Shown: piece after piece, positions 1,340-59,765 of the stretch
Layout: each line of letters opens with the position of its first letter
Numbering within the stretch: the stretch's first letter is position 1
Virus record (IMG/VR): IMGVR_UViG_3300017987_005500
Length of the DNA: 64,000 bases
Source: a virus
Taxonomy: Duplodnaviria > Heunggongvirae > Uroviricota > Caudoviricetes
Reading direction: 5' to 3' (one strand)
Made by a program: the position numbers and the translations under genes
Notes under the pieces: generated by a model
Told to the model about the DNA's origin: nothing
The model's input: the letters and a program-made list of their open reading frames with translations, nothing else
The model's database searches: none

Positions 1340-1675
1340 ATGACAGTTGAATTAATATTGCGTACAGATAGGGATCGCCTCCTTATAAGAGAAAGAAGGG
1401 TTAACGATATTGTTGATCCATATGAAGAAAGTGATGTGTATGGAGAAGAGATGACTGACTATACACATGAAATAGAAAAAAGATTAATTGAGCTTATTGC
1501 ATATACTCCAAAAGATCCTGAAGAACTCTCAAAAATAATTGAGAGTGCTAAACAAGAGTTTGCAAATCATTTGCTCTATGCAACGAAAAATGGAATCAGG
1601 CAAACACTCACACATCTTTGTATGCATGATGATATATCATTTAGAATAATTGATGAAAGTGACAGGAACCCATAA
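1340..1675 (+). CDS. Hypothetical protein (111 aa)
   Basis: Intact ORF; stop overlaps next start (ATGA coupling). Confidence 0.5.
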   Translation: MTVELILRTDRDRLLIRERRVNDIVDPYEESDVYGEEMTDYTHEIEKRLIELIAYTPKDPEELSKIIESAKQEFANHLLYATKNGIRQTLTHLCMHDDISFRIIDESDRNP

Positions 1676-3036
1676 TGATTGACGCGGATAAAATTGTTGA
1701 GACGCTATGTAAGTGTGGTTATGAAGCTTACATAGTTGGTGGAGCTGTGCGTGATATGTTTCTTAGCAAAGATCCTAATGATGAGGACATTGTCACAAAC
1801 GCTTCACCCGAAGAAATTGGATTGATTTTCAAAGATGAAAAAGTGGACATGGTAGGTGCTAACTTCCTGGTAACATTAGTAAATGGTATTGATGTCTCAA
1901 CATACCGCAAAGATATGAATACAAAACCAGGAAGGGAGAATTGTCAAGTAACTCAATGTAAAACTATTCAAGAGGATTTACATAAAAGGGATTTTACAAT
2001 TAATGCCATTGCGACATGTCCTTATACTGGGGAAATCATAGATCCATTTGATGGGAGAGAAGACTTAAAGAATAAAGTTATAAGATTTGTAGGTGAACCT
2101 GGTCAAAGAATTAAAGAGGATTATTTACGAATGTTAAGAGCTGCTAGATTTTGTTGCTTAATTAAAGGGACAATTCATCCAGACACAATGGATGCTCTTA
2201 AAGGTCATGCATATTTAGTTAATAATATAGCTTTTGAAAGAATAAGAACTGAACTCTTGAAAGTTATGGAATATGATGAACCAAGTATATTCTTTGATGT
2301 ATTATATAAAGCAGGAATTCTTGAAATATTATTTCCTGAACTTTATTTTATGTATGGACATACTGGAGGAAAGTATCATCAGGAAACTTTAGATGTTCAT
2401 TTCAAAATAACTGGAGATGTATTATCTCCAAATGATAAGATGTTAAGATTAACTGGTTACCTACATGACATAGGAAAACCAGCTGCTTATGCGATGAATG
2501 ATGGTGAAAATTTTGTTGATCATGAAAAGTATGGCGCTGATTTAGTTAGACATTATCTCACGAAATATAAATTTTCAACTGAGGAAATTGAAAGGTCTAC
2601 TAATTTAGTAAAGTATCACATGAGATCATTTTCACAGACTATCACAAATAAAGCAATTCGACGTATGTTAAGAAAATTTGTGGAACATAATATAAATTGG
2701 AAGGATTGGTTTAAACTTAAAGTTGCTGATAATTTAGCAAATATAGGAAAACCAAAATACACCAAAAAAGAGATTAAAGCATTTTCATTGAAAGTTAGAG
2801 AAGCAATGAACTATGAGGATAAATGCTTTAAAATTACCGACTTAAATATAAATGGGAATCAAGTAATGGAAATTACAGGATTATCACCCGGTAAAGAAAT
2901 CGGAGAAATCTTATCTCATTTATTTGACATTGTAATAGATACGCCTCAAATGAATAACTACGAAACTTTAAGTAATGTTGTTACTGGAATCTATAAACGA
3001 AAAAAAGAGGAGATGTCAAATGAAAGCGGTATCTAA
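1675..3036 (+). CDS. cca: CCA-adding enzyme / tRNA nucleotidyltransferase with HD domain
   Basis: N-terminal 'GGAVRDMFLSKDPNDEDIVT' is the class-II nucleotidyltransferase head motif (GGxVRDxLLGxxxxDxDxxT); 'LHDIGK' is an HD motif; 453 aa. Confidence 0.8.
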   Translation: MIDADKIVETLCKCGYEAYIVGGAVRDMFLSKDPNDEDIVTNASPEEIGLIFKDEKVDMVGANFLVTLVNGIDVSTYRKDMNTKPGRENCQVTQCKTIQEDLHKRDFTINAIATCPYTGEIIDPFDGREDLKNKVIRFVGEPGQRIKEDYLRMLRAARFCCLIKGTIHPDTMDALKGHAYLVNNIAFERIRTELLKVMEYDEPSIFFDVLYKAGILEILFPELYFMYGHTGGKYHQETLDVHFKITGDVLSPNDKMLRLTGYLHDIGKPAAYAMNDGENFVDHEKYGADLVRHYLTKYKFSTEEIERSTNLVKYHMRSFSQTITNKAIRRMLRKFVEHNINWKDWFKLKVADNLANIGKPKYTKKEIKAFSLKVREAMNYEDKCFKITDLNINGNQVMEITGLSPGKEIGEILSHLFDIVIDTPQMNNYETLSNVVTGIYKRKKEEMSNESGI

Positions 3037-4141
3037 GAAATTTCAGGAATTGATGGATGAGTCAATCGTTAAAGTTATTTTGGACAAAACAAGTAATATT
3101 GACTCAGTGATTGGTGAAGTCAAATCCTGGTGGAGTTATGATTTATTCAACAGGAAACCCGGACCTGCTTATCAGGAAGATGGTACATTTGTAGGGACTG
3201 ACTTGGACATGGCGTGTTTTCTCTATGAGTTAGCTGAGAGAGGAGCTGCCATAAATATTCCTGAATACAAATCTTTTCGTCAGACCAAATTCAAAGAAGG
3301 TCAGATGTTGACGAGTAAAGATAATCGTCATGGTATTTTGAAAGGACTTGTTTCAAATAAAGAAACATGGGTCTTTAGCATTAACATGATTGATCAAAAT
3401 GTTATGACCTCAGATGGAACTGGAGATTCAAGAACATTTTCTTTAACAGACTTTAAAGGGAAATGGTATGATGGATGGAAAGATCTTCAATTCATCGGCA
3501 CTGCAAAAGAAAATGGTTGGTTGATGGAGAATAAACTCCTAACTGACAATAAAATTATATTCAGAGATTTTATTCACCCTAATCGGTGGACATCATTCTT
3601 TGGAGTTAAATACTTCATTACAAAGCTTCTTATTCAACGACTGACTGAAGAAGCGAGTCATTATTATAAACAAGTAAAGAGAATGAAAGAAGAAGGAATT
3701 ACTTTTGCTCCAGGCGGCGGAGCAACATCACCAGCATCATATACAGATAAATCAGTAGACAAAGGAAAACAAATTACTGTCGACGCATTTGAAGTCGAAC
3801 TTGACGTACCGCCAAATGACACAAAGTTTCCTGAATATGAAAGTAGTCAGGAAAACTATACGGAATTATACAGAAAAAGAAATAACTTTGTATTCGGAGT
3901 TGGTCCAGCTCTAAGATTTATGACAAGGGCAACTGAGTATGCACACTTTAAAAATCCTGATCGCTTTCCGCATTGGATAAAAGGCGCGGAATGGGTACAT
4001 GAATATAAACAAAAAGGTAAAAAGAAAGTTTGGAGTCGTTTAGTACTTTGCCAGCCAGAGAATTTTAAATTAGGACTTGCTTTAAGAAAAAGAACCTGGC
4101 CAAAAAGCACAAGAGTCTCCGAAGATTATGAAGAAAAATAA
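3019..4141 (+). CDS. Hypothetical protein (~374 aa)
   Basis: Long ORF. Probable start ATG 3019 (MKAVSKK) follows GAGGAG SD. The ORF-track start at 2975 overlaps the cca gene end. Confidence 0.55.
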
Positions 4142-4148
4142 ACTATAA

Positions 4149-4454
4149 ATGGAGGATATTATTATCATTGATTTTAAAGCATTAATACAAATGTTAAGTG
4201 AAGCATCTAATGGTAAGATGCGTATGTTTGATGACACTAACGATCCTGGGAAAGTTAGGATTGCTGGACTTGCTGTTGATAGTGAAAGACCTACGAGAGT
4301 ATTATATGCACATGACCTTCCCACAACAGCTGAGGATTATATGATGCTCACCTGGGGAAAGGCATTTGGGTTTGAACATCCTGCGTTAGTAGAATATGAT
4401 GAGCAAGGGAGAATGATAGATGGCGAAATTGAGCAAAATAATCAGACAGAATAA
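4149..4454 (+). CDS. Hypothetical protein (101 aa)
   Basis: ORF preceded by 'aaatggaggatatt' RBS-like sequence. Confidence 0.45.
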   Translation: MEDIIIIDFKALIQMLSEASNGKMRMFDDTNDPGKVRIAGLAVDSERPTRVLYAHDLPTTAEDYMMLTWGKAFGFEHPALVEYDEQGRMIDGEIEQNNQTE

Positions 4455-44504: not shown

Positions 44505-44508
44505 ATTT

Positions 44509-45198: not shown

Positions 45199-45225
45199 AT
45201 CAACTTCCTTTTTGCATTTAATAAA

Positions 45226-45903: not shown

Positions 45904-45906
45904 AAT

Positions 45907-46215: not shown

Positions 46216-46218
46216 ATT

Positions 46219-46850: not shown

Positions 46851-46854
46851 AATA

Positions 46855-49114: not shown

Positions 49115-49129
49115 AGTTTCCTTTTTCAG

Positions 49130-49402
49130 TTATCTTACTCTTATCCTTACATCATCATTTGGTATAAGGTCATCTCGAGTAATTCGTTTATAATAATCTT
49201 CAAGTTTCGAGTGTAATAAGCATCCAAATTTATAAGGATTATTAATAATCAAATATGGATGTTCACCATCTTCATCGTGAGTTGTAACCGGACTTAATAA
49301 ATCACCGACTGGAATTTTACCACATCGGTATCTCATTCCACCATTATGATTTACAACTACAATTGTTTCTTTTAAATGATCACACGTGTCACAAGATAAC
49401 AT
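49130..49402 (-). CDS. Hypothetical Cys-rich protein (90 aa)
   Basis: 'CDTCDH...' ORF. Confidence 0.4.
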   Translation of the reverse strand: MLSCDTCDHLKETIVVVNHNGGMRYRCGKIPVGDLLSPVTTHDEDGEHPYLIINNPYKFGCLLHSKLEDYYKRITRDDLIPNDDVRIRVR

Positions 49403-49407
49403 ATTCT

Positions 49408-49740
49408 CTATTCCTTTATTTCCTTTAATCCATCTCTATCAACTCTATATAACTTTGGTTCATGTGCATTATATGAAAATGATAATTTGTTAGAATCTTT
49501 ATTATCAATTGAATATATAAATTCAATAGTATCAATGTATCTATTGTACTTAAATGATATACTTTTATCACATTTATCATATTTAATAATGCAAATTTCT
49601 TCACCATCATATACAATTGTATCACCATTGAATGATATTTTATTTCCAAACATGTCTGAATATGTTTGAGTCGGTATTCTATGAATATTAGTGCATGATG
49701 ATAAAAATAATATAATGGGTATAATTAATAACCTTTTCAT
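49408..49740 (-). CDS. Predicted lipoprotein (110 aa)
   Basis: Signal peptide + lipobox 'MKRLLIIPIILFLSSC'. Confidence 0.5.
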   Translation of the reverse strand: MKRLLIIPIILFLSSCTNIHRIPTQTYSDMFGNKISFNGDTIVYDGEEICIIKYDKCDKSISFKYNRYIDTIEFIYSIDNKDSNKLSFSYNAHEPKLYRVDRDGLKEIKE

Positions 49741-49967
49741 TTATATCCTTCCATTTTTCGTAATTCGTTAATGTCTAAATATTCAAATCCTTGTCCACAT
49801 GAAATACAAAAATCCATTGAAAGAAGTTTAAAAGTTTTCTGATCTCTTGAAACTAATAAATATCCATCATCACATTTTGGGCAAATAGATCTATAAATAG
49901 ACTCTTCACTTGCTCTCGTTAATTCGCTATGCTTAACTTTCTCAGTTTCGTTATGCAGATTTTTCAT
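49737..49967 (-). CDS. Small zinc-ribbon protein (76 aa)
   Basis: 'CPKCDDG...CISCGQG'. Confidence 0.4.
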   Translation of the reverse strand: MKNLHNETEKVKHSELTRASEESIYRSICPKCDDGYLLVSRDQKTFKLLSMDFCISCGQGFEYLDINELRKMEGYK

Positions 49968-49969
49968 TA

Positions 49970-50255
49970 TTCTTCCTTTAAAAATACATGACGGTCACTC
50001 TTGCCGGAGCTGTCTAGTCCGGTTAGCATTCACGAAGTTATTGATTTTGAGGATTAAATCAACTCCGCTACATTTCCTTCAACAATATCACCTCATGGTG
50101 GTGCTTTCTCTGCTTAATTGTTATAAGATAACTTATACGCAGTCTTGTAGATATGATGAAGTATATCACCCCTTTTCCAATGTGACAGACCGTGAGTCCG
50201 GAACCCTCAGCTCACTCGTCGGGATAAGTCCTTTTCGCTGTCATGTAAATCGTGG
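49970..50255. other. ~285-nt ORF-free, relatively GC-rich region with hairpins, adjacent to tRNA-Met (candidate structured ncRNA)
   Basis: No credible ORF (the 50041..50382 ORF runs through the tRNA). Hairpin 'ccgga-gctgtctag-tccgg'; segments 'gtgagtccggaaccctcagctcac'. Confidence 0.3.
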
Positions 50256-50329
50256 TGGACCCGAGAGGATTCGAACCTCCAACCTTTCGGTTATGAGCCG
50301 AAGGATCTACGCAATTGATCTACGAGTCC
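50256..50329 (-). tRNA. tRNA-Met (anticodon CAT; could also be initiator or Ile-lysidine type)
   Basis: Acceptor ggactcg/cgggtcc (one G.U), D arm 'gatc-aattgcgta-gatc', anticodon arm 'ttcgg-ctcataa-ccgaa', T arm 'ggagg-ttcgaat-cctct', CCA encoded. Confidence 0.6.
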
Positions 50330-50333
50330 AAAA

Positions 50334-50582
50334 TCATAAAATGTCTTTTGTTTTTATTCTAAAAAATTTTTTAATTTTATAACGTCTTGTTTTCCAAGTT
50401 AAATAAGATTCCTCATCAAGCAAAACCCACTCTTTAGGAATTATATTTAAATCTTGTGTCCAAATTGCAAATAATCTAGTGGGTGGCAAACCTTCACCGA
50501 AGTGATAATATCTCCATTTACCACCCACTATAAATCTTGTCAATTTGAAGGCAGATAAAAACCCTCCTTCGATTAATCTCAT
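50334..50582 (-). CDS. Hypothetical protein (82 aa)
   Basis: Small ORF. Confidence 0.35.
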   Translation of the reverse strand: MRLIEGGFLSAFKLTRFIVGGKWRYYHFGEGLPPTRLFAIWTQDLNIIPKEWVLLDEESYLTWKTRRYKIKKFFRIKTKDIL

Positions 50583-50590
50583 AATTCACC

Positions 50591-51541
50591 TTAGTCAAGA
50601 AATACTACATTCGCTCCTCTAATTTCACCATTGACAACAACTTTGTGCCATCTTTTTAAAGTAATGGTTGCGTGATCAGGATGGCGAATAGTTCCTTTTA
50701 CATATAAAGTAGGATCTTTCACCATTGGAGTCCAACTAAGTTTTTTCTTTTTAGGATATTTTTTGTATAATTTCTTTCTTTCTTCTTCAGTATATCCTGT
50801 TCTTAGTTTATCTCTTTCAGATTCAGTAAGATCACTATGTCCCCAAGGATCTGTAGCAACATAAACAACTTCTCCTCCGAAGCGATAAGCATATTGTGCA
50901 ATATGAGGTTTTCCTCCAACACGTCCGGCGAGAATTAAAGGTTCATTTTTAAGAATGATATCTTCAGGATCTTTATGATCGGTGGGAACGAAAAACCACT
51001 CACCTTGTCTGACGAACCCATCATTCTTTCTTTTATTCCAGTTTTTTCTCTTTACTCCACTTCGTTTTTGGGCGTCAATAATCTCAGCTGGTTTAAGAGA
51101 GTCTTTCGCTGTATTGATATTTGTAGCACTGGCATTGACTTGACTTGAGAACCAATGTCTTTCGTCATGTCCGCAAAGAGCTTTTACCATATCAGCTTTT
51201 TCGTGAGGATTTTCTCTTGGGATTTTTGCATTGAGTAAGAGATGTCTATCTTTAGCGTCAATATTAACAATGTCAATGTCAACTTTATCAGTCACAACAA
51301 TGTCGAAAAATTCTCCCTTTTTGTCTTCACTCACGTCTACTGTGAATCTATGTTCAGGTGGGGTATTTCGTCTTAGTCTTTCACCTAACATATTTAATCT
51401 GAATGTTCGTCCGATGAAGGGATTTCTTTCTCTTGGCGCTCTGATTTTAACACGCGCTCCCATCTCTTCGAACTTTTTAATTACGTTTTGTCTTTCCATT
51501 GTCTTACTACCTTGATTTTGATGTACATATTTTGCCATCAC
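50591..51541 (-). CDS. Hypothetical protein (316 aa), basic N-terminus
   Basis: Long ORF; no motif recognised with confidence. Confidence 0.5.
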   Translation of the reverse strand: MMAKYVHQNQGSKTMERQNVIKKFEEMGARVKIRAPRERNPFIGRTFRLNMLGERLRRNTPPEHRFTVDVSEDKKGEFFDIVVTDKVDIDIVNIDAKDRHLLLNAKIPRENPHEKADMVKALCGHDERHWFSSQVNASATNINTAKDSLKPAEIIDAQKRSGVKRKNWNKRKNDGFVRQGEWFFVPTDHKDPEDIILKNEPLILAGRVGGKPHIAQYAYRFGGEVVYVATDPWGHSDLTESERDKLRTGYTEEERKKLYKKYPKKKKLSWTPMVKDPTLYVKGTIRHPDHATITLKRWHKVVVNGEIRGANVVFLD

Positions 51542-51622
51542 ACGTCCTCCTTTGTTAGAGTTTTACGTGTGTGGCAGACCTCCCGCTGCTAAAATTGATC
51601 TATAAACCATTGTATTTCCTCC

Positions 51623-52069
51623 TTAAAATGGGTCAATTGGCATGCAAACAATATCATCTATACAACCTGTCACTTTTAATTTATATTCAGTTTGTCTTTT
51701 ATACATCTTTGAAATAATTAAAGCATAACCTGCAGCTTCAAGAAAATTATTAAAAAGTCCAAACCAAAATGTTTTTCCAGTTCTTAAATCTCTTAATTCA
51801 CTTTGATAATGATCAGCATATCTTGTTGATACATTATGCTGTATATCAATCTTTCCACCTTCTGGATGGAGTTTAATGAAACTTCTTTCATAATTGATGT
51901 TGATAAACCATCTTTTGTATAAACCGCTTTTTGCAAATGTATTATTTAAAATAAATTGCTGTGCATCATCAACTGCTTTTCGTACTTCTTTCTCATGTAG
52001 CATAATTGTCTCCAAACTTCGTAATTCGTCATGGTACCCCAGGCAGGATTCGAACCTGCGCGCAAACAT
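51623..52069 (-). CDS. Hypothetical protein (148 aa)
   Basis: ORF; function not recognisable. Confidence 0.45.
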   Translation of the reverse strand: MFARRFESCLGYHDELRSLETIMLHEKEVRKAVDDAQQFILNNTFAKSGLYKRWFININYERSFIKLHPEGGKIDIQHNVSTRYADHYQSELRDLRTGKTFWFGLFNNFLEAAGYALIISKMYKRQTEYKLKVTGCIDDIVCMPIDPF

Positions 52070-52107
52070 TTAGAGTGTCCTGCTCTAAACCACTGAGCTA
52101 CTGGGGC
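52032..52107 (-). tRNA. Suppressor tRNA (anticodon CTA, reads UAG amber)
   Basis: Acceptor gccccag/ctggggt, D arm 'gctc-agtggttta-gagc', anticodon arm 'ggaca-ctctaaa-tgttt' (two G.U pairs), T arm 'gcagg-ttcgaat-cctgc', CCA encoded. Confidence 0.5.
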
Positions 52108-52114
52108 AGTTTAA

Positions 52115-52417
52115 TTAAAGTAAGTTGAGTCCCTTAAATGAGTCATTTTGGTCTAAGCACGCGATTGAGGTTAATTGGTTACCTATATCTGGCTCAATAA
52201 ATTTCTCATGAAATATACCGTCCATACTTAGTCTATGAAGGTATTTTTTCAATTGGTATTGACTTACTTTTAAATAAACAAACGTCTGTCTATCCCAGTT
52301 TATGTCAGGTCGCTTTGATGCAAATTTAGCGACGACGTGACCACCTTGTACTGCTTGCTGGGAACTACTTAAGTCATTTCGTATGAGGACATATAACTTC
52401 ATTCCTTTGTCCTCCAT
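52115..52417 (-). CDS. Peptidyl-tRNA hydrolase PTH2-like protein (100 aa)
   Basis: 'KLYVLIRNDLSSSQQAVQGGHVVAKF' resembles the PTH2 'vvRtDLkMgkGKiaAQcsHaa' core; short (100 aa). Confidence 0.4.
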   Translation of the reverse strand: MEDKGMKLYVLIRNDLSSSQQAVQGGHVVAKFASKRPDINWDRQTFVYLKVSQYQLKKYLHRLSMDGIFHEKFIEPDIGNQLTSIACLDQNDSFKGLNLL

Positions 52418-52650
52418 TCTGTAATTTTCTCTTGTAACTCTTTTTTAATTCTATCAATCCAATCTTCGTCCGGTTCATTATCTTCTCTTGGGATTTCAAT
52501 TTGTTTTCGTTTTCGCCCTCTTAATTCACAATAGGCGATGTGTTGATGTCTAAAAATAACACTATCCCAATTATCATGTTCTTCTCTAATTTTAGATGCA
52601 AGTGCTTTCTGTGTTTCTTTGAATTTTAAAAATGGATTAATTGTAGTCAT
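52399..52650 (-). CDS. Hypothetical protein (83 aa)
   Basis: Small charged ORF. Confidence 0.4.
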   Translation of the reverse strand: MTTINPFLKFKETQKALASKIREEHDNWDSVIFRHQHIAYCELRGRKRKQIEIPREDNEPDEDWIDRIKKELQEKITEWRTKE

Positions 52651-52763
52651 TTTATGTTCTCCTTATAAATTATGTTTATTAAATTAAAATTATCAAATGT
52701 TAATAAACATATAAGGAGGTCCACGAATGACCTACGTATCAAAATCTTTGTAATTAAGCTACG

Positions 52764-53006
52764 TCATAATTTTCCCTTTCTTCTAAATAGTTTAAAAAAA
52801 CTTCTCCAAAAAGATTTTTTTATAGGAACATCATTGGATGATCCTATAATTATAACTGTGGAAGGTTTAGGTTTGATCAATTCAAATTCATCTTCTGTAG
52901 CATCTTTATATTCATATATTTCTCTTTGCTTACAATCTTCACAAACCAAATCCTCCATCGAGTCATAATAAATTGGTTCATTATCGCATCCTATGTAATC
53001 ACACAT
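52764..53006 (-). CDS. Small zinc-ribbon protein (80 aa)
   Basis: 'MCDYIGCDNE...CEDCKQ'. Confidence 0.35.
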   Translation of the reverse strand: MCDYIGCDNEPIYYDSMEDLVCEDCKQREIYEYKDATEDEFELIKPKPSTVIIIGSSNDVPIKKSFWRSFFKLFRRKGKL

Positions 53007-53155
53007 TAAAACCTTCCTATTAAAAAATTAAAATAAATTCCCTCTTATAAATTAATATATATAATAGGAAGGTTTATATTAAAACTTCAATTCTTTATCA
53101 TCATCGTCTTTATTACATATTCTGAATAATTTCCAGATCCAACATAAGAACTTTC

Positions 53156-53449
53156 CTATACGATCTCCAGCTCTGTTGGGGCAGCGGGAGCAACGAAATC
53201 TAAAGGGACGTTATTCTTTACCGCCAAAGGTCCCTCATTTCCAACATCATCAACTGCTGAAAGACCTATATTATAAGTCCCATCAACATCACCAAGAAGT
53301 CCATTTAATTCAACTGAAGTAACATTTCCCAATGAATGTTTTGTTGAGGACATTGTTACAGCATTTGGAACTTCTTCAACATATAAATTATAACCTGTTA
53401 CATCTGAAGCAGTACTTGCTTTCCATTTAAGAGTTTTTGTTTTTGCCAT
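53156..53449 (-). CDS. Hypothetical protein (97 aa), beta-rich
   Basis: 'LKWKASTASDVTGYNLYVEE' (FN3-like W..Y.LY signature). Confidence 0.4.
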   Translation of the reverse strand: MAKTKTLKWKASTASDVTGYNLYVEEVPNAVTMSSTKHSLGNVTSVELNGLLGDVDGTYNIGLSAVDDVGNEGPLAVKNNVPLDFVAPAAPTELEIV

Positions 53450-53468
53450 TTTTATTCTCCTTATTAAG

Positions 53469-53885
53469 TTATTCTAAGATTAATCCCTCAATTGGAGGGA
53501 TTTGTGCATATACCCACCATGCTTGCTTTTCACCATTCATTCTTGAATTTTCAGGTTGGGTTGTATGAGACCAATCTGAAGTTTTAGTTTCTCCATCAAC
53601 TAAAGTTATTGATCTAATTATAAATATATAATGACCAACTTTATTAAAAGTATATGTTGTTGATATACTTGTCGTGGACCCTAAATCTATGAGTTGTTCT
53701 GTCTCAGCATGATATGCTTTAATCTCATATATGATAATATTATCAATAGGTTCCCAACCAAGTTCAATTGTATCACCAACATAAACCCATCGAGTAGCGA
53801 ATACATAATGACCTTTTTCAAATGCATGAATGTATGAAGCAAACATTGAAATAAGCATAAATGAAATTAAAATTATTTTTTTCAT
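53469..53885 (-). CDS. Secreted FN3/Ig-like protein, paralog A (138 aa)
   Basis: Signal peptide 'MKKIILISFMLISMFASYIHA'; shared C-terminus 'WVYAQIPPIEGLILE'. Confidence 0.5.
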   Translation of the reverse strand: MKKIILISFMLISMFASYIHAFEKGHYVFATRWVYVGDTIELGWEPIDNIIIYEIKAYHAETEQLIDLGSTTSISTTYTFNKVGHYIFIIRSITLVDGETKTSDWSHTTQPENSRMNGEKQAWWVYAQIPPIEGLILE

Positions 53886-53887
53886 AT

Positions 53888-54286
53888 TTACTCCAATATA
53901 AGGTCTTCAATAGGTGGTATTTGTGCATATATCCAAAAACTTCTATGTTCTCCATTTACTCTACAATTTTCAGATTCTGATGTTATTGTCCATGGTGATT
54001 CTCCAACATCATTTAATGCTCTTAATTTAAGAAAATAATGACCAACTCTTTTTAATACAAATGAAATTTGTATATTTGGAGTTTTCCCAAGAGCAGTTAC
54101 TTGATCAGTTTCAACATGAATCAATAAAACTTCATATTCAGTTGCATTACTTACAGTGCTCCATTTAGCAGTAATTGTATCTCCTGAATAATTCCAATAA
54201 GTTGCATGATCATGAAGTCCTGGTTCAATTGCATAAACTGGAGAAGTAAAAAAAATAATAAGAAAGATTAAAATGATTTTTTTCAT
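53888..54286 (-). CDS. Secreted FN3/Ig-like protein, paralog B (132 aa)
   Basis: Signal peptide 'MKKIILIFLIIFFTSPVYA'; 'WIYAQIPPIEDLILE'; 'TEYEVLLIH' FN3-like. Confidence 0.5.
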   Translation of the reverse strand: MKKIILIFLIIFFTSPVYAIEPGLHDHATYWNYSGDTITAKWSTVSNATEYEVLLIHVETDQVTALGKTPNIQISFVLKRVGHYFLKLRALNDVGESPWTITSESENCRVNGEHRSFWIYAQIPPIEDLILE

Positions 54287-54308
54287 ATTTCTCCTTTCTT
54301 ATAAAAAA

Positions 54309-54383
54309 TGGTAGCGACACTCAGATTTGAACTGAGAACACATGGCTTATCGGGCCACCGCTCTACCGTTGAGCTATGCCGCT
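54309..54383 (-). tRNA. tRNA-Ile (anticodon GAT)
   Basis: Acceptor agcggca/tgtcgct (one G.U), D arm 'gctc-aacggta-gagc', anticodon arm 'gtggc-ccgataa-gccat', T arm 'ctcag-ttcaaat-ctgag', CCA encoded. Confidence 0.6.
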
Positions 54384-54620
54384 TTATTTTTTAACTAATT
54401 CTAAATTTGTGTTTAATGCTGTTTTAGGTTGTCTGTAATCAAGAGTTCTTTCGCTTGTAGCGCCATGAGGAAGAGATATTTTCTTAACTGTCCCGCATTC
54501 CTTACACCAAAGTATTTCCTCATGTCCTAAAGATTGTATTCTGTCAGACATCATAGAAACCCAATTGTTAGTACCACAAGCACAACTTTTCACTTGTACA
54601 GCCATATTTCCTCCAAAAAA
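54384..54620 (-). CDS. Small zinc-ribbon protein (~75 aa)
   Basis: 'CACGTNNW...CKECGT'. ORF-track N-terminal extension to 54656 overlaps tRNA-Ser; probable start 'MAVQVKS'. Confidence 0.35.
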   Translation of the reverse strand, partial: FFGGNMAVQVKSCACGTNNWVSMMSDRIQSLGHEEILWCKECGTVKKISLPHGATSERTLDYRQPKTALNTNLELVKK

Positions 54621-54625
54621 ATTAA

Positions 54626-54710
54626 TTGGCGGAGGGTAGACGAATCGAACGCCCACGTGTCACCGCGCCCAAGGGTTCAAGCCTTGTTGCCGACCATTCA
54701 GCGGTACCCT
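54626..54710 (-). tRNA. tRNA-Ser (anticodon TGA), class II with long variable arm
   Basis: Acceptor ggagggt/accctcc perfect, anticodon arm 'caagg-cttgaac-ccttg', T arm 'gggcg-ttcgatt-cgtct', 85 nt, CCA encoded. Confidence 0.6.
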
Positions 54711-54763
54711 CCAAATTGTAAAGGGTGGCAAACACTTATAATTATTTACCACCCTACTCTTAT

Positions 54764-54982
54764 TTATTGTACAACAGTTCCTTCAAATATAGTTTCACCA
54801 CCATTTTCAACTAAAGCATGATCAATAGTCTTTTCAGTATCGTCATAAGTATTTAAATTTTTAACTCTTTTGAAGATTTGAGTTAGTACATTTCTTGCTC
54901 TTTTCAAAGTAATATTTCCAGTTACAATTGGATTTGAAGTCTTAAATGTAATGTTTAATCTTGCCATAATACTTTCCTCCAT
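54764..54982 (-). CDS. Hypothetical protein (72 aa)
   Basis: Small ORF. Confidence 0.35.
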   Translation of the reverse strand: MEESIMARLNITFKTSNPIVTGNITLKRARNVLTQIFKRVKNLNTYDDTEKTIDHALVENGGETIFEGTVVQ

Positions 54983-55057
54983 TATTGTTAATATAATCTC
55001 ATTATTTTAAATAAGTATTCATTAATTTGTTCACAATTCAGGAGGTACTATCTTAAA

Positions 55058-55330
55058 TTATTCGTGATAACCTTCATCATAAAATACTTTGTCAACTTCA
55101 TCGATCCAATGCATTATCTCATCTGTCCCAATGTTATGTTCTGAATTGTTCTCACATTTAAAATCTAAATAAGCATTATCACCATCAGGACAAGTTGTGA
55201 TATTTTGATCAACTCTTTTAAGCTGAATATTGTTATTATTAGAAATTGAAAATGTTTTAGTTGGAGTTTTATAATCAACTAAAATATTTCCTCCACATTC
55301 AGGACATTTTTTTAGAGACATTTTTACCAC
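55058..55330 (-). CDS. Small zinc-ribbon protein (90 aa)
   Basis: 'CPECGG...CPDG...C'. Confidence 0.4.
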   Translation of the reverse strand: MVKMSLKKCPECGGNILVDYKTPTKTFSISNNNNIQLKRVDQNITTCPDGDNAYLDFKCENNSEHNIGTDEIMHWIDEVDKVFYDEGYHE

Positions 55331-55656
55331 CTGTCAATTCGACAACTTACGTTATTGTTTCCCCAACAAGAACATTCACAGTCAACTTCAACTGATTTCG
55401 GTCTTCCATCACCTCTATTAAATACAACGTCAGTTTCATAATCATTATCTTCGTCTTCATATTCCCACGGGTCAAAACTAAAATTATATGCTCCAGGATA
55501 TTTTGCTTTTATAACTTCAATTGCCACTTCTTCATATTCTTCGTCAGAGACACTTTGTGTTATAACTGAACAATAAATGCTTATAATTATAGCTCCACCA
55601 ACAAAAATAATTCCTCCAATGATTTTTAACCAATCAATTAAATCTTCAGTTCGCAT
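55324..55656 (-). CDS. Membrane-anchored protein (110 aa)
   Basis: N-terminal TM 'IIGGIIFVGGAIIISIYCSVI'; C-terminal Cys-rich 'CECSCWGNNNVSC'. Confidence 0.45.
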   Translation of the reverse strand: MRTEDLIDWLKIIGGIIFVGGAIIISIYCSVITQSVSDEEYEEVAIEVIKAKYPGAYNFSFDPWEYEDEDNDYETDVVFNRGDGRPKSVEVDCECSCWGNNNVSCRIDRW

Positions 55657-55687
55657 TTTAATTCCTTTCGCTATTCTCTAATTTAAA

Positions 55688-55764
55688 TGGTGGGGACAGG
55701 CGGACTCGAACCGCCGACTCGGAGATTTTCAGTCTCCAGCTACTACCATCTGAGCTACATCCCC
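55688..55764 (-). tRNA. tRNA-Phe (anticodon GAA)
   Basis: Acceptor ggggatg/tgtcccc (two G.U), anticodon arm 'ggaga-ctgaaaa-tctcc', T arm 'ggcgg-ttcgagt-ccgcc', CCA encoded. Confidence 0.6.
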
Positions 55765-55768
55765 AATT

Positions 55769-56365
55769 TCATTCCCATAAATATTTATATTGATTTAAAA
55801 TAAAAATTACAACTTTACCTATAATTAATTCTTTAAATTCAGAATGCATATATTTATGATGTGTAGGACACAATGGAATCAAATTTTCTTTTTGATTATT
55901 ATTATGATTTTCATCAAAATGATGAACTTCTACTACATTTTCTTCATCACAAATTATACAACGTTTATCATGATAATAAAAACATATTTTTCTATAATCA
56001 TTACTTTCATCAATTTCAATTTTATTAGGTCCACCAAAAAGAATATATCTACATTCTTGAGAACATGTTACACATCCTCTGTTCACAACTTTTTTACATA
56101 TTGGACATAATTTCTTATGAATAGGATTTTCTTTGCATGATCTTTCATGTTGTTTAATACCACGAATTGAAATTAATTTATTGCAATGTAAACAGTTTGT
56201 CAATTTAGCAGAATATTGTCTTTGTCCTTCTTTATACGATGTCTTTAATTTTAACTTATTTTTTCGTCTAACTTCAGGACATTTTGCTACAAATTCACTG
56301 CAACAATGATTTCCATTTTTAAATGTTTTTATTGCATCATTGCCACAACCATATGAACAAAGCAT
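55769..56365 (-). CDS. HNH endonuclease (198 aa)
   Basis: 'VVEVHHFDENHNNNQKENLIPLCPTHHKYMH' HNH box; multiple CxxC; abuts tRNA-Phe. Confidence 0.65.
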   Translation of the reverse strand: MLCSYGCGNDAIKTFKNGNHCCSEFVAKCPEVRRKNKLKLKTSYKEGQRQYSAKLTNCLHCNKLISIRGIKQHERSCKENPIHKKLCPICKKVVNRGCVTCSQECRYILFGGPNKIEIDESNDYRKICFYYHDKRCIICDEENVVEVHHFDENHNNNQKENLIPLCPTHHKYMHSEFKELIIGKVVIFILNQYKYLWE

Positions 56366-56377
56366 AAATTTCCTTTA

Positions 56378-56466
56378 TGGCGGAGAGACTGGGATTTGAA
56401 CCCAGATGTGCTTTTACACACGTTCGATTAGCAGTCGAATGCACTACCTGATTATGCGACCTCTCC
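56378..56466 (-). tRNA. tRNA-Ser (anticodon GCT), class II
   Basis: Acceptor ggagagg/tctctcc (one G.U), anticodon arm 'ttcga-ctgctaa-tcgaa', T arm 'ctggg-ttcaaat-cccag', 89 nt, CCA encoded. Confidence 0.6.
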
Positions 56467-56669
56467 TTTTATTTTTTCTTTAATGAAATCATAACCTAAA
56501 CTTATAAATCCCAATACAAATATTATTATAACTAAAATCCATAAGGTTATATAATCATAAGTTTCTTTCATTGGAACCTCTTTAATCAATTAATTCAATA
56601 ACAAAGTCAACAAATACAACAAGACCTTTTATTATATTTTTAAATAATCTAATAAAGAATAATTTTATT

Positions 56670-56957
56670 TTATTGAGCAATGTCATTTATCGGTGTGCCT
56701 CCAATGAAACTATCATAGTATTGAAAATAAGGTACATATGTATTTTTGTAATAAAATTCAACTTCACCAAATTCAATTTTTTTACAAGCTGAATCAAATC
56801 TCATTGGACCAAATTCACCTCTTATATGAAGAGTTTGAATAATCTCATCAGCAACATCTCCATTGTCTACTAAAAGATTACCATTGTCCCATTGAAATTT
56901 TCCTTTAAATTGTTTATGAGTATTCAAAATAGATGTTACATAACTTTCTAATCCCAT
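56670..56957 (-). CDS. Hypothetical protein (95 aa)
   Basis: ORF overlapping-start coupled to kinase gene. Confidence 0.4.
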   Translation of the reverse strand: MGLESYVTSILNTHKQFKGKFQWDNGNLLVDNGDVADEIIQTLHIRGEFGPMRFDSACKKIEFGEVEFYYKNTYVPYFQYYDSFIGGTPINDIAQ

Positions 56958-57475
56958 CTCTTTAACTCTCCTTCTTTATCAACTTCTAATATTTTATCTG
57001 CTCCAAGTTCATGTATTCTATAAGTCAAGTCTTGCATTTGATTTGCAAACCTATACATTTTTTCAGTTCCAACATTTTTAGTTTGTCGTTTTTCGCATGT
57101 CTCCATGTCAATATTCATCAATACAATTGTTGTGTCATAATTGTATTCTTTAGCATAGTCTATCCAACGCTTTGTAATGTAATAAGATACATTCGTTGAA
57201 TCAAGAGCAATATTTTGTCCTCTTATCATAATTGCTCTTCCAACCAACTCATACATTCCTTGTAAAAGTTTATCAATATTAGGATTGAATGTAGATCCTG
57301 CTGCTAATCTAAAATCATCAAGACATAAAATTGTATGAGTATCTTTTTTATATTTATCAATGTATGTCGATTTTCCTGCTCCAGGAATTCCTACTGGAAT
57401 AAATAATTCGGGATTCATATGTACGGTCCTATTATTTTTAGAAATCCATATATCCAAGGGATGAAAATGAAACAA
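56948..57475 (-). CDS. P-loop polynucleotide-kinase-like protein (Pnk kinase-domain homolog)
   Basis: 'IPVGIPGAGKSTYIDKY' Walker A resembling the T4 Pnk N-terminal kinase domain (GxPGSGKST); 175 aa, so the kinase domain only. Confidence 0.5.
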   Translation of the reverse strand: MFHFHPLDIWISKNNRTVHMNPELFIPVGIPGAGKSTYIDKYKKDTHTILCLDDFRLAAGSTFNPNIDKLLQGMYELVGRAIMIRGQNIALDSTNVSYYITKRWIDYAKEYNYDTTIVLMNIDMETCEKRQTKNVGTEKMYRFANQMQDLTYRIHELGADKILEVDKEGELKRWD

Positions 57476-57607
57476 AGAATAATAAGTAAAACACTTTTAA
57501 TAATGAATGAATGTAATTTTGTATTATAAATAATATAATCATCTACCTTCTCACTAAAAAAAGTTCTTACTTTTCTTATCATAACATTTTCTCCCATTAT
57601 AATTTAA

Positions 57608-57686
57608 ATGGTCGGACATGTCCGATTTGAACGGCGATTGGTGCTCCCAAAGCACCCGTGTTACCAGGTTACACTACATGTCCGAT
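57608..57686 (-). tRNA. tRNA-Pro (anticodon TGG) with non-canonical acceptor/T-stem register
   Basis: Anticodon arm 'ggtgc-tttggga-gcacc' perfect, D arm 'gtgt-aacctggta-acac'. Extended acceptor pairing 'tcggacatg/catgtccga' (9 bp) with only a 3-bp T stem 'ccg-ttcaaat-cgg'; ends ...GACCA. Confidence 0.45.
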
Positions 57687-57733
57687 ATATGTATAGGACG
57701 AAGAGTCATTCTCCGCCCTATGAAATTACAATG

Positions 57734-58774
57734 TTATTTTAATTTTGCTTGATATCTTTGTTTTCTTTCAGCAGCTTCTTTTTTAAATCGTGCTGCCATC
57801 TCTGCTCGATTTTTATCTCTTTGTGCTTTCTGTGCATCCGTCAATGGTGCATTTGAAGCAATGAGTTCATCAATTTTGGCATTATTCATTACCGTCTTAA
57901 CAGCTTCCCCTGAGCGTAACGCATCATATGGGAAGACAAACACTTGATTGTTTGGAGAATCTGCCATTCTCTCCATTACATCATATTGTCGATTAACAAG
58001 AATAGCTGAAGTCAAAGATGATGTTACAATCATATTTGATGCCGCTTTTGTTCTTGCTTTAATAATTTCAGCTTTACCTTCTTCTCTGGCAATATCTTCA
58101 GCTCGAGATGCTTGGGCGAGTGTTGCTTCAGCTAAGGCAGCTTGTTTTTCATCTTCCAATAGAGCTTCCTTAATTTCCTCTCGTTGATTCTTAACAACTT
58201 CAGGATAATCAAGATTTGAAACTAAAAGAGCTGATGTCGCAATTGGATATTTAAGCTCTTTAAATTTTGCAATTACAGCTTTGGAAATAGCTGCTTCAAT
58301 TTTCTTTCTTTCTGCCCTTATATTGTCAGTAATATAAGGAGAAACAATAGCTCTTGAATTTGATCTAACAACATCCATCATTGCCAGTTGATAAAACTTT
58401 TCCAGTGAAAGAGAATACCCCTGTTGATCTCCAGTGTTAATTGGAATTGCAGGGACTTTATCTTTAATAACGTCAATTGTTGCGTCGGTGATATGGAATG
58501 AACCTAACCATTTAACGTCCACGTCCATATTAATGTCGTCTTTACACAGAATCTTCATAGGTTCTGTGAAACTTTTTAACTTTGTGTCAACAAAGTATAC
58601 TTTATCACGTCCATAAGCTGTATAAGAACCACTCTTTTTAATTGTAGTTCCACCACTTGCTGTAAGCACAATTACTGTAGTGCCGGGTGGGACAACTTTT
58701 GATTGACATGAAATTGTAGTCAGAGTTAGCAAAACTGCGAGAATCATTACAATATTAAAGTTTCGACGATTCAT
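57734..58774 (-). CDS. SPFH/band-7 (prohibitin/HflKC-like) domain lipoprotein or secreted protein
   Basis: Signal peptide with 'LTLTTISC' lipobox-like cleavage site; SPFH-type core followed by long Ala/Glu/Lys-rich helical region 'EKQAALAEATLAQASRAEDIAREEGKAEIIKAR'. Confidence 0.55.
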   Translation of the reverse strand: MNRRNFNIVMILAVLLTLTTISCQSKVVPPGTTVIVLTASGGTTIKKSGSYTAYGRDKVYFVDTKLKSFTEPMKILCKDDINMDVDVKWLGSFHITDATIDVIKDKVPAIPINTGDQQGYSLSLEKFYQLAMMDVVRSNSRAIVSPYITDNIRAERKKIEAAISKAVIAKFKELKYPIATSALLVSNLDYPEVVKNQREEIKEALLEDEKQAALAEATLAQASRAEDIAREEGKAEIIKARTKAASNMIVTSSLTSAILVNRQYDVMERMADSPNNQVFVFPYDALRSGEAVKTVMNNAKIDELIASNAPLTDAQKAQRDKNRAEMAARFKKEAAERKQRYQAKLK

Positions 58775-58789
58775 TAACTTTTCTCTCCT

Positions 58790-59260
58790 TTAAGGTGTTT
58801 TCGGTTGAGGCACATTTGCCTTCATGAAATCTTCAAAGTTTTCGCTGCTTTTCTTCTTTTGTTCAATTATTCGCTCTTCTCTTTTTTCCTCCTTTACTTT
58901 TTCTAAATTTTCATTTGATTCTACAATTGCCTCGGGAGTTTCTGGTATATATTCTTCTGCTTGTTGTGCGACTGTCTCAGCTCCCATATCACTCAATTTC
59001 TCTGGTTGCATATTTATTGCAAAGAAAAATGTGATAATTAATATTACACAAATCCATATTCCAGGAATCGCTATTGAAAGATTTTTCCATAATGTTGAAT
59101 GGACTTTATAGGAGTTTGTCTTTTCCTCACCTTTCAAATTAAGTTTGATGATTTCCTTTGACCTGTTCTTAATAAGCATAGATAAAAAGTAAGTCAAAAT
59201 AATTCCACCAACACACCACGCATACATCATTACATCAATGTAAACATTACCAATCTGCAT
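58790..59260 (-). CDS. Membrane protein (156 aa)
   Basis: Two N-terminal TM segments; Glu/Lys-rich C-terminus. Confidence 0.45.
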   Translation of the reverse strand: MQIGNVYIDVMMYAWCVGGIILTYFLSMLIKNRSKEIIKLNLKGEEKTNSYKVHSTLWKNLSIAIPGIWICVILIITFFFAINMQPEKLSDMGAETVAQQAEEYIPETPEAIVESNENLEKVKEEKREERIIEQKKKSSENFEDFMKANVPQPKTP

Positions 59261-59261
59261 T

Positions 59262-59765
59262 TCACTCTCCTTCGTTTAATTTTTTAATTGCTTCATTCGC
59301 GATTTCTTCAGTTAATCCATTTGTCATATAATCAGTTTGAATTAAATGATCCATTAAGTCTTCCATATCATCATCGTCATCTAAAATAATAAATTTACAG
59401 TCTTCTCCAAATTCATCTAACCATTCTTTAATTTCAGTTCCTCGATATGTTTCTCTTGATACGTCATATAATAAGTCTGGAGTCTCTCCAATAAATTCGC
59501 CTTTTATATTAGCAGTTAATAAAAAATCATAGTGATTCTTATGTCTTCTCCAAGTGCTAGATAATACAATCTTAGCACCTGTTTCCTTGATGATTCTATT
59601 TAATTGTTTGACACATTCAATAGATATCTTAAGGACTCCTTCCCCACCCTTTACTATTTCAGCAGGATGAGGATTTTTCCCATTGTCATTCCAACAATCA
59701 ACGTGATTAAGAACTCCATCAACATCAAGGAAAATTATCTTTTCCATTATAACTCCTCTTACCAA
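59262..59765 (-). CDS. HAD-family phosphatase (polynucleotide 3'-phosphatase-like)
   Basis: 'KIIFLDVDGVLNH' HAD motif I (DxDGxL), 'VLSSTWR' motif II-like, 'ILDDDDD' motif IV-like; resembles the phosphatase domain of T4 Pnk. Confidence 0.55.
   Translation of the reverse strand: MVRGVIMEKIIFLDVDGVLNHVDCWNDNGKNPHPAEIVKGGEGVLKISIECVKQLNRIIKETGAKIVLSSTWRRHKNHYDFLLTANIKGEFIGETPDLLYDVSRETYRGTEIKEWLDEFGEDCKFIILDDDDDMEDLMDHLIQTDYMTNGLTEEIANEAIKKLNEGE

Follow-up and report, generated by a model that had tools for sequence, protein, structure and literature searches.

Predicted RNA-repair and translation genes, with a Ro60-like module and tRNA-shaped RNAs, in the tRNA island of a T4-like jumbo phage

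We analysed a 64-kb stretch (hereafter, the window) of the viral record IMGVR_UViG_3300017987_005500, which carries a dispersed set of predicted tRNA-repair and translation genes alongside its tRNA genes. The set is probably a translation-maintenance kit, which would sustain phage protein synthesis despite the cutting or trimming of tRNAs; a role in counter-defence against host tRNA nucleases is plausible. Kits of this sort have been described before in jumbo phages (PMC7824862), and the window adds one deep-branching lineage, which is useful but expected. The new part is a module encoding a Ro60-like protein, an ARPP-1 protein and a conserved 216-aa protein, accompanied by an array of putative permuted tRNA mimics, a variation on the theme of Ro60 and its Y RNAs. 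All features are listed in Table 1.

The window has a G+C content of ~31%, is densely coding and bears its genes mostly on the minus strand. No near match to it was found among the 50,697 deposited phage genomes of INPHARED. Its proteins recur on metagenomic contigs, the longest of which measures 308,335 bp and sets the genome size at 308 kb or more; an overlapping contig of 148.5 kb carries the T4-type virion genes Gp23, Peptidase_S77 and Portal_T4 (JGI annotation), and the capsid protein has only ~23% identity to its counterparts in cultured T4-like phages. Based on contig size, virion genes, capsid divergence and the lack of a near match, the window is, to judge from its sequence, the tRNA island of a deep-branching T4-like jumbo phage with a genome of at least 308 kb. 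The loci compared below are those of two close relatives, L029 and L031 (the latter, also L012, at ~74% nucleotide identity and located through the cassette motif and homologues of the Ro60-like protein), a distant locus on a 304-kb contig having little else in common with the window (L033), and the Phycisphaerales chromosome CP070718.1 (L032).

An earlier note on this DNA, made without database searches, proposed that the two activities of T4 Pnk are split here between a Pnk-like P-loop kinase (56948-57475) and a HAD 3'-phosphatase (59262-59765). Profile searches kept both proteins in RNA-repair families and reassigned neither to an unrelated one. Thus, the split holds at the level of families, with a Pnk-clade kinase and a HAD protein of the Swiss Army Knife (SAK) type encoded by separate genes 1.8 kb apart; the corresponding activities are predictions. 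The kinase ORF, on the minus strand, matches AAA_33 (8.6e-11) and phrog_505 ('polynucleotide kinase'), and its true start is probably at 57418, giving a protein of 156 aa, as in the JGI call. In NCBIfam it matches nothing but the kinase domains of bacterial Pnkp and PNK-3'Pase, and the neighbours in PDB are likewise polynucleotide kinases: the CthPnkp kinase (4gp6, 4.5e-6), Pnkp1 (4xrp, 5.4e-5), T4 Pnk (1ltq) and mammalian PNKP. The protein has a GAGKST P-loop and an LDDFR motif with the Asp-x-x-Arg pair; its residues 5-116 align to residues 11-122 of the CthPnkp kinase, spanning the P-loop and the region with the CthPnkp SDFCR sequence. The HAD protein scores 111.5 bits against PF18143 (HAD domain in Swiss Army Knife RNA repair proteins; cut-off 27.5), and its DVDGV sequence fits the nucleophile motif DxDx(T/V). 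Homologues are present in 285 phage records, many of them T4-like; three loci with such homologues in IMG/VR have nothing else in common with the window. The role of the SAK HAD family in RNA repair is itself a prediction (PMC7824862).

The genes around this pair add to the picture. Between kinase and phosphatase lies an SPFH/Band-7 gene with a marginal Band_7 score (24.4 bits against a cut-off of 23.6, tagged as weak by JGI), followed 49 nt downstream by tRNA-Pro; the 156-aa protein encoded between the SPFH and HAD genes has no family match in Pfam. No relatives of the kinase and SPFH genes were found in IMG/VR. The metallophosphoesterase listed in the earlier note is confirmed by its Pfam match and is kept in the tRNA islands of L029 and L031; searches against solved structures returned just one relative, a weak match to CWF19L1.

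Class II CCA enzymes are marked by a Pol-beta head with GGxVRD...DxD, an RRD-type motif B and an EDxxR motif D. The gene at the left of the window, previously read as a CCA-adding enzyme with an HD domain, has all the corresponding domains, namely, the PolyA_pol head (PF01743, 4.5e-29), PolyA_pol_RNAbd, HD and tRNA_NucTran2_2, and its motifs are intact (GGAVRD, DED, RDFTINA, EDYLR and HD). CCA tRNA nucleotidyltransferases are its best NCBIfam matches, and the PcnB and A-adding models score lower. Since the best of these scores (207.9 bits) is under the equivalog cut-off of 290, the protein is a divergent member of the family; CCA addition itself is predicted from sequence. A second candidate 3'-end enzyme is RlaP, the RNA-ligase-associated Pol-beta nucleotidyltransferase (PF10127, 55.9 bits against a cut-off of 23), which in vitro adds 1-2 nucleotides onto damaged RNA 3' ends (PMC12776372). 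Its gene neighbours encode a DSGGFQ-motif protein and MazG-like ORFs, with no RNA ligase gene among them. RlaP is absent from the gene list of the earlier note, which also missed the Ro60-like module, the SPFH gene and an R2K ATP-grasp.

The same note held that several tRNA-like genes lack an encoded CCA or end non-canonically, which would make the CCA enzyme necessary. Direct reading of the 3' ends shows the claim of missing CCA to be mostly wrong: ARAGORN finds 16 tRNAs, to which Rfam contributes two further tRNA-like RNAs, and CCA is encoded in 15 of the 16, the exception ('Ser-ACT') being cassette C3 described below. Genuinely non-canonical ends belong to a handful of tRNA-like cassette RNAs at 39.6-41.6 kb, and the need for the enzyme can be upheld for these few odd RNAs only. 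Because 15 of 16 tRNAs encode CCA, the enzyme is not needed for maturing the ordinary ones, and a role in repair fits better. Another tRNA-like RNA, of 90 nt, lies 7 nt upstream of tRNA-Lys.

Several further genes concern translation more broadly. The candidate peptidyl-tRNA hydrolase of the PTH2 type (52115-52417) finds no Pfam match as a single sequence, but stands at the profile level: PF01981 is present in two of 20 homologues, and the family profile retrieves Pth2 structures from PDB (24bt_A, 5.6e-5; 2zv3_A, 0.034), so that the label 'PTH2-like' is a reasonable one for this sequence. Its gene is followed 8 nt downstream by an amber-suppressor-type tRNA, and L033 has one too (19527-19604). 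There is no sign of TAG recoding in the window, where TAG terminates 8 of the 86 ORFs. Ribosomal protein S21 and the GroES-like co-chaperonin, both named earlier from the letters, pass their Pfam cut-offs, and their adjacency is kept in L029. The R2K family, to which a predicted peptide or amino-acid ligase of the window belongs, is itself predicted to modify translation proteins (PMC7824862).

No RNA ligase had been recognised in the window, and profile searches agree. Neither Rnl1, Rnl2, RtcB nor any other ligase family was found in the window by Pfam, PHROGs and motif scans, or in the ~14 kb past its ends, which were examined on JGI-annotated contigs with precomputed Pfam domains; the remaining ~240 kb of the genome lie outside this search. 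Scans of the window for KxDG, KxHG, EGxxxK and RtcB motifs gave irrelevant matches only. Three candidates were rejected. The 346-aa gene between kinase and HAD genes encodes the SPFH protein, and a 412-aa gene near the right end encodes an HNH endonuclease joined to a pilin-like sequence. The third, a 373-aa protein whose gene overlaps the end of the CCA gene, has no match in Pfam or PDB, and its confident model (pLDDT 89) has no ligase-like fold. Sealing of an anticodon-loop break would call for a ligase from elsewhere in the genome or from the host.

The Ro60-like protein (537 aa) was recognised by its predicted structure. An AF2 model built from a 34-sequence alignment (pLDDT 88, pTM 0.84) has as its top seven Foldseek matches in PDB exclusively Ro60/TROVE structures, aligned over the full length with E-values of 6.8e-7 to 2.4e-4 and probability 1.00. 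These include human and Xenopus Ro60, Ro60 of Thermus phage phiLo, Deinococcus Rsr and a TROVE-domain crystal structure. By contrast, neither the TROVE domain (PF05731) nor a solved Ro60 was retrieved by Pfam, by the single sequence or by the 34-sequence profile, and precomputed Pfam domains are lacking in all 120 homologues listed. The family comprises at least 159 members in phages and bacteria, some labelled 'VWA domain-containing protein', and conserves the metal-ion-dependent adhesion site (MIDAS) residues of the vWA domain (DxSxS, T and D). The fold match suggests that the protein has the Ro60 fold, from which RNA binding may be predicted. A second vWA protein of the island (393 aa, 47933-49114, minus strand) has an N-terminal region similar to vWA_4 (3.1e-05, just under the cut-off) and a C-terminal region matching a PHROG of unknown function.

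The Ro60-like and ARPP-1 genes overlap in the window, and their pairing is kept in L029, L031, L033 and the Phycisphaerales chromosome (8001-10641), a context not among the ARPP gene neighbourhoods given in PMC9503650. In the phages (the window, L029, L031 and L033) the pair is preceded by the gene for the 216-aa protein, and the trio resides inside tRNA islands. The 216-aa protein has no Pfam or PHROG match; its homologue at the same position in L033 is 30% identical.

Upstream of this gene module, on the minus strand from 41600 to 39670, runs an array of tRNA-like cassettes, and in four loci such an array is found 0.04-2 kb upstream of the Ro60-like gene. The 5' flank common to the cassettes reads GGG-ACTT-N5-GGTAYTTTAGAA, and their common 3' flank reads TTTACCYTA-CCC. 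The ACCYTACC core occurs six times in the window against 1.3 expected, always on the cassette strand and within 1.7 kb. The closing stems (16, 15, 23 and 6 bp) differ in sequence from unit to unit with complementarity kept. A helix between the 'GGTA' and 'TACC' flank motifs is not kept in all cassettes (L029) and is not claimed. Of two cassette motif searches in IMG/VR, one returned nothing and the other 16 chance matches without tRNA context. C1 holds an ordinary tRNA, whereas C2 and C4 are permuted: their order is T-arm, 3' acceptor strand, short linker, 5' acceptor strand, D-arm and full anticodon arm. The linker reads A-CCA-CAAACC in C2, the joined halves of which fold as a cloverleaf, and T-CC-TTT in C4, which has C33 in place of the near-universal U33. 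Calls made by ARAGORN on joined halves were dropped as evidence for permutation, since one of two mismatched cross-joins was also accepted; covariation provides the stronger support.

The layout of the array is the same in L012/L031. Comparing C3 and C4 with L012, 96.3% of the proposed pairs form, against 33-48% with partners slid, and 12 pairs show two-sided changes, against 0-1 in the slid controls; both figures come from two sequences only. Two of the 12 two-sided changes are in the permuted acceptor stem and five in the C3 closing stem, and T and anticodon stems contribute pairs as well. In C4, the acceptor, T, anticodon and outer stems all stay paired despite such changes, and equivalents of C4 exist in L029, where it has decayed, and L033. 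These two loci hold further cassettes, read by eye and unscored, including a permuted GUA element whose acceptor strands read ATTTGCT/TGCAAAT and whose linker is T-CCA. The tRNA at 39670-39806 likewise shows compensatory changes in its anticodon and T stems relative to its orthologue, and in L031 the 122-nt tRNA-like RNA is swapped for a different cassette. Anticodons shift between orthologous cassettes (ACU/GUU, GUG/UUG, AAU/GAA and GUA/AUA) while the stems stay paired. Three of the cassette anticodons start with A, which is unusual in bacteria. Targets of anticodon nucleases of the colicin E5 type include Tyr, His and Asn tRNAs. The cassette specificities Tyr, His and Asn overlap these targets, either through a decoy role or by coincidence.

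Most likely, the cassettes are Y-RNA-like tRNA mimics, because their paired ends, their order of T-arm, closed acceptor and D-arm, and the adjoining Ro60-like gene match the design of YrlA. This Y RNA of bacteria and phages has paired 5' and 3' ends and a body made of a T-arm, a closed acceptor-like stem and a D-arm; in M. smegmatis, YrlA carries a 7-bp acceptor stem, undergoes RNase P cleavage and has CCA added in vivo (PMC4201824). The cassettes have 7-bp acceptor stems and CCA-like linkers as well, and what the whole arrangement shares with bacterial Rsr/YrlA (PMC4201824; 10.1101/312249; PMC7790460) is a ring-plus-vWA protein beside end-paired, tRNA-mimicking RNAs. Unlike YrlA, the cassettes retain a full anticodon arm with the junction in the variable region, at least six of them stand in tandem, and their shared module also flanks ordinary tRNAs and sits in the D-loops of others. 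The stems of the cassettes do not contain the YrlA motif GNCGAAN0-1G, whose lone match lies within the T-arm of tRNA-Thr. In place of this motif the cassettes have TTTACCYTA-CCC...GGG-ACTT...GGTAYTTTAGAA, and this conserved module is likely to be the binding site of the divergent Ro60-like protein. The latter differs from bacterial Ro60 in having no Pfam TROVE match, and its partners are ARPP-1 and the 216-aa protein, whereas bacteria often have rsr-yrlBA-rtcBA operons with RtcB and RtcA.

The array can also be read as the substrate of the toolkit, in which case the toolkit would mature the phage's own permuted or intron-bearing tRNA genes and the flank-plus-stem module would be an excised splice or processing signal. 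Kinase and phosphatases would heal the ends, a ligase would join them, RNase P would open the acceptor and the CCA enzyme would complete C3 and C4. We regard this as unlikely. We give equally little credence to its fullest form, according to which the cassettes are working permuted or D-loop-interrupted tRNA genes, the module is a new protein-recognised processing signal, and the repair genes, with an unseen ligase and perhaps the Ro60-like protein, form a phage pathway of tRNA splicing and circular permutation. The 3' half does lie upstream of the 5' half in C2 and C4, with complementary acceptor strands, and joining the halves in silico gives cloverleaves with 7-nt anticodon loops. Moreover, the permuted acceptor pairing survives two-sided changes in L012, and permuted equivalents could be read in L029 and L033. 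The module itself occurs in three settings, namely, as leader and trailer of ordinary tRNAs, at the permutation junction, and as a D-loop hairpin in two functional-looking tRNAs that encode CCA; linkers often hold CCA or part of it, and C3 and C4 have no full CCA. Circularly permuted tRNA genes are known from Cyanidioschyzon merolae and from some algae and archaea, where they are processed via a bulge-helix-bulge and a circular intermediate. The cassettes resemble them in the upstream 3' half, the short acceptor-closing linker and the pairing of leader with trailer, but their setting is a phage, and inspection of the permutation junction revealed no evident bulge-helix-bulge. Nor was a splicing endonuclease or a ligase identified; no ribozyme motif is evident, and Rfam returns tRNA-like matches only, with none for the conserved flanks. 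A text search of the literature found no report of permuted tRNA genes in phages, which is weak evidence of absence. In addition, C4 is decayed in one relative and has C33 instead of U33, and both cargo and anticodons vary freely among relatives. Finally, the array adjoins the Ro60-like gene, which favours a Y-RNA role, and its T-arm, closed acceptor and D-arm with paired ends are exactly the known design of YrlA.

In the translation-maintenance kit that we favour, a healing group composed of the Pnk-clade kinase, the SAK HAD phosphatase, the HD domain of the CCA enzyme and the metallophosphoesterase would produce 5'-phosphate and 3'-OH ends, and the CCA enzyme together with RlaP would restore lost 3' nucleotides. 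The PTH2-like hydrolase would free stalled peptidyl-tRNA, and the ~15 ordinary phage tRNAs would top up the tRNA pool. The Ro60-like particle with its tRNA-like RNAs may serve as a platform that scaffolds or screens damaged RNAs, as proposed for bacterial Rsr/YrlA/RtcB, and S21, GroES and the R2K ATP-grasp would act as auxiliaries of translation and folding. The evidence consists of families, folds, motifs, co-location and RNA structures, from which activities, substrates and the link to host nucleases are inferred; the presence of further repair-family genes, RlaP and the Ro60-like protein, strengthens the reading of a split Pnk and RNA repair. Several observations weigh against it. The hallmark of T4-type heal-and-seal repair is a ligase accompanying the healing enzymes, and none was found in the region searched; the 373-aa protein coupled to the CCA gene is, by its predicted fold, no ligase. 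The argument from necessity of the CCA enzyme covers just a few odd RNAs. Co-location is loose, the genes being spread across 58 kb and interspersed with many small ORFs of no relation to them and with homing endonucleases. The order kinase-SPFH-HAD could be compared in near-identical contigs only, and the SPFH protein looks membrane-anchored from its sequence. Nothing specific links S21, GroES, R2K or the generic metallophosphoesterase to RNA repair or to counter-defence against anticodon nucleases.

Two further accounts draw on the same observations. Repair might be confined to 3' ends and proceed without a ligase: phosphatases would clear 3' or 2',3'-cyclic phosphates and other blocking groups, the CCA enzyme and RlaP would rebuild tRNA 3' tails that toxins or exonucleases had damaged, and the kinase would act elsewhere. 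Three types of phosphoesterase and two 3'-adding nucleotidyltransferases with no ligase in the window and flanks are in line with this view, and so is the fact that nearly all tRNA genes encode CCA, which leaves the CCA enzyme to repair rather than to mature. Bacterial class II CCA enzymes, moreover, have HD domains with phosphatase and cyclic-phosphodiesterase activity. This account is nevertheless improbable, because the Pnk-clade 5'-kinase, whose relatives work with ligases, is left unexplained, RlaP is defined by its association with ligases, and the ~240 kb beyond the search could hold a ligase. Alternatively, the window might contain a loose collection of unrelated accessory genes. The kinase, HAD protein and metallophosphoesterase would then act on nucleotides or proteins and have in common with the tRNA genes no more than their place in a hyperplastic region rich in endonucleases. 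The parts are indeed scattered, lying between dozens of small ORFs of unknown function and five or more HNH endonuclease genes, the kinase scores far under the full-length NCBIfam equivalog cut-offs, the metallophosphoesterase has no informative relative, and the HAD homologue in the T4-like phage leB is a lone hypothetical gene. However, the best matches of the kinase, HAD protein, RlaP, CCA enzyme, PTH2-like and Ro60-like proteins all belong to the biology of RNA ends or tRNAs, and the same combination recurs across jumbo phages (PMC7824862), which makes a chance assembly doubtful.

Phage T4 repairs tRNA-Lys cut by PrrC using Pnk and Rnl1. The window shares with T4 a T4-like virion module, a tRNA cluster, a Pnk-type kinase (matching 1ltq) and a HAD-superfamily phosphatase, and differs in that the two are separate genes, the phosphatase matches the SAK HAD family and not demonstrably the Pnk-fused type, and no ligase was found. 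The closest precedent is the repertoire described for jumbo phages (Iyer et al. 2021, PMC7824862, section 3.4.9), which comprises tRNAs, Pnk, stand-alone SAK HAD, calcineurin-like and HD phosphatases, RlaP, CCA enzyme, PTH2, R2K ATP-grasp and, occasionally, Ro/TROVE with a tRNA-like partner. Point by point, the same combination is present here, except that Rnl1, Rnl2 and RtcB are absent from the window and its ~14 kb flanks, the Ro60 homologue has diverged beyond the reach of Pfam and has ARPP-1 as its partner, and the lineage is remote. The kinase is closest to those of the Pnkp/Hen1 and Pnkp1-Rnl-Hen1 systems (4gp6 and 4xrp), and a metallophosphoesterase is encoded here too; in the window, however, the domains are separate, no ligase or Hen1 methyltransferase domain accompanies them, and the metallophosphoesterase cannot be assigned with confidence to the Pnkp type. 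A role as cofactors of RNA repair has been suggested for Band-7 proteins that are encoded beside a tRNA-like gene (b7a-tRNA) and next to RtcB (Burroughs and Aravind 2016, summarised in 10.1101/312249). The SPFH gene directly followed by tRNA-Pro and flanked by the kinase and HAD genes is similar, and the differences are the absence of RtcB, the marginal Band_7 match, the signal- or lipoprotein-like N-terminus and the membrane-protein neighbour.

Table 1. Coordinates of the predicted genes and RNAs in the window
Feature	Coordinates	Strand	Basis
Class II CCA-adding enzyme with C-terminal HD domain	1675..3036	+	Pfam, NCBIfam, catalytic motifs
Conserved 373-aa protein, overlapping the CCA gene end	3020..4141	+	Family of 277 proteins, confident model
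RlaP nucleotidyltransferase (predicted)	22897..23964	-	PF10127 6.8e-15, phrog_388 5e-46, GS...DMD
GroES-like co-chaperonin	26923..27228	-	Cpn10 1.3e-10
Ribosomal protein S21	27225..27464	-	PF01165 (Ribosomal_S21) 7.4e-18, phrog_21469
tRNA island, 15 canonical tRNA genes, all with encoded CCA	36374..60068	-	ARAGORN, Rfam, 3' ends read directly
ARPP-1 protein, translationally coupled to the Ro60-like gene	36988..38019	-	PF20208 7.2e-20
Divergent Ro60-like protein (TROVE-like alpha-solenoid and vWA with MIDAS)	38016..39629	-	AF2 model, Foldseek
tRNA with CCA and cassette hairpin in D-loop (AAU; GAA in L031)	39670..39806	-	Sequence, alignment
Conserved 216-aa protein of the Ro60-like module	39818..40468	-	Homologues only in relatives
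Second tRNA with CCA and cassette hairpin in D-loop (GUG; UUG in L031, L029)	40495..40622	-	Sequence, orthologues
122-nt tRNA-like RNA, cassette-like internal hairpin, UUCG hairpin replacing the anticodon arm, no CCA	40820..40941	-	Rfam tRNA 33.4 bits, fold
Cassette C4: circularly permuted tRNA-like RNA (GUA), whole unit stem-closed	40953..41092	-	Sequence, covariation
Cassette C3: non-permuted tRNA-like RNA (ACU; GUU in relatives), no CCA, 23-nt closing stem	41101..41263	-	Inverted repeat I1
Cassette C2: circularly permuted tRNA-like RNA (UUG), 15-nt closing stem	41268..41429	-	Inverted repeat I12
Cassette C1: ordinary tRNA-Thr(UGU) with CCA in conserved flanks, perfect 16-bp closing stem	41455..41600	-	Inverted repeat I2
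90-nt tRNA-like RNA, extended anticodon arm	44416..44505	-	Rfam tRNA 38.2 bits; sequence and fold
Calcineurin-type metallophosphoesterase	46855..47613	-	PF00149 (Metallophos) 4.1e-20, motifs intact
Amber-suppressor-type tRNA (anticodon CUA)	52032..52107	-	ARAGORN; Rfam 65 bits
Short (95 aa) PTH2-like peptidyl-tRNA hydrolase (candidate)	52115..52402	-	Family profile against Pth2 structures
Stand-alone Pnk-clade 5'-OH polynucleotide kinase domain (predicted)	56948..57418	-	Pfam, PHROG, NCBIfam, PDB, motifs
tRNA-Pro(UGG), between SPFH and kinase genes	57609..57684	-	ARAGORN; Rfam 48 bits, permissive scan only
SPFH/Band-7 protein, N-terminal signal or lipoprotein-like segment	57734..58774	-	PF01145 3.5e-05
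156-aa protein, predicted membrane segment, between SPFH and HAD genes	58790..59260	-	Hydrophobic segments in translation
Stand-alone HAD_SAK_2 phosphatase (predicted)	59262..59747	-	PF18143 5.4e-32, DVDGV
R2K-clade ATP-grasp, predicted peptide/amino-acid ligase on proteins	61052..61885	-	R2K_3 5.7e-18, R2K_2 3.4e-15, phrog_7313 3.5e-56

Other features of the region are as follows. The neighbour of RlaP with the DSGGFQ motif typical of tRNA-guanine/DNA transglycosylases (DpdA/Tgt-like; 458 aa, 21444-22820, minus strand) has no Pfam or PHROG match. Near it is a QueE-like radical-SAM protein (27451-28146, minus strand; phrog_2076, 1.6e-20), and the two sequences suggest 7-deazaguanine modification of DNA or tRNA. 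A divergent thymidylate-synthase-like, a cytidylyltransferase-like and a weak PIG-L-like deacetylase gene (24873-25712, 35287-35832 and 35777-36316, respectively, all on the minus strand) suggest by their similarities nucleotide or sugar-nucleotide metabolism, possibly for DNA hypermodification. Genes for a YqeY-domain protein, OMP decarboxylase and a phosphoribosyltransferase follow the tRNA island ~1.8-4.2 kb past the right end of the window (L004/L006, 1-2364). Two sets of small paralogues stand out: proteins with CxxCxGxG zinc-ribbon repeats and a conserved 'DWIENIVGK', in at least seven copies (18641-21113 and 33762-34103, minus strand), and five tandem ORFs of ~100 aa (45309-46850, minus strand), several ending in 'GDWK(A/S)WF(C/M)NDIFE', which have no family match. 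The window has at least five homing endonucleases of HNH/NUMOD type (11200-12198, 32926-33714, 42362-42916, 55769-56365 and 61882-63120), three of them within the tRNA island. The last is the 412-aa ORF mentioned above (minus strand), which joins in one reading frame an HNH endonuclease, a degenerate tRNA-Val-like sequence and a type IV prepilin-like gene. The tRNA-Val-like remnant (62463-62533, Rfam 28.9 bits) has its 3' half and CCA intact and its 5' acceptor strand gone, and an N_methyl motif occupies residues 277-300. Judging by the sequence, an endonuclease seems to have inserted itself at a tRNA gene and become joined in frame to a pilin gene.

For the Ro60 family, these results mean that proteins of ~530 aa, annotated as 'VWA protein', invisible to Pfam and present in phages and bacteria, are predicted by structural modelling to have the Ro60 fold, and that in the loci compared they are paired with ARPP-1. 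Phage Ro60-like genes beside arrays of tRNA-shaped RNAs with a conserved closing module offer a testable system for the role of Ro60 and Y RNAs in RNA repair. For phage biology, the cassettes may show tRNA mimics, possibly real permuted tRNAs, at work in the conflict between phage and host over translation.

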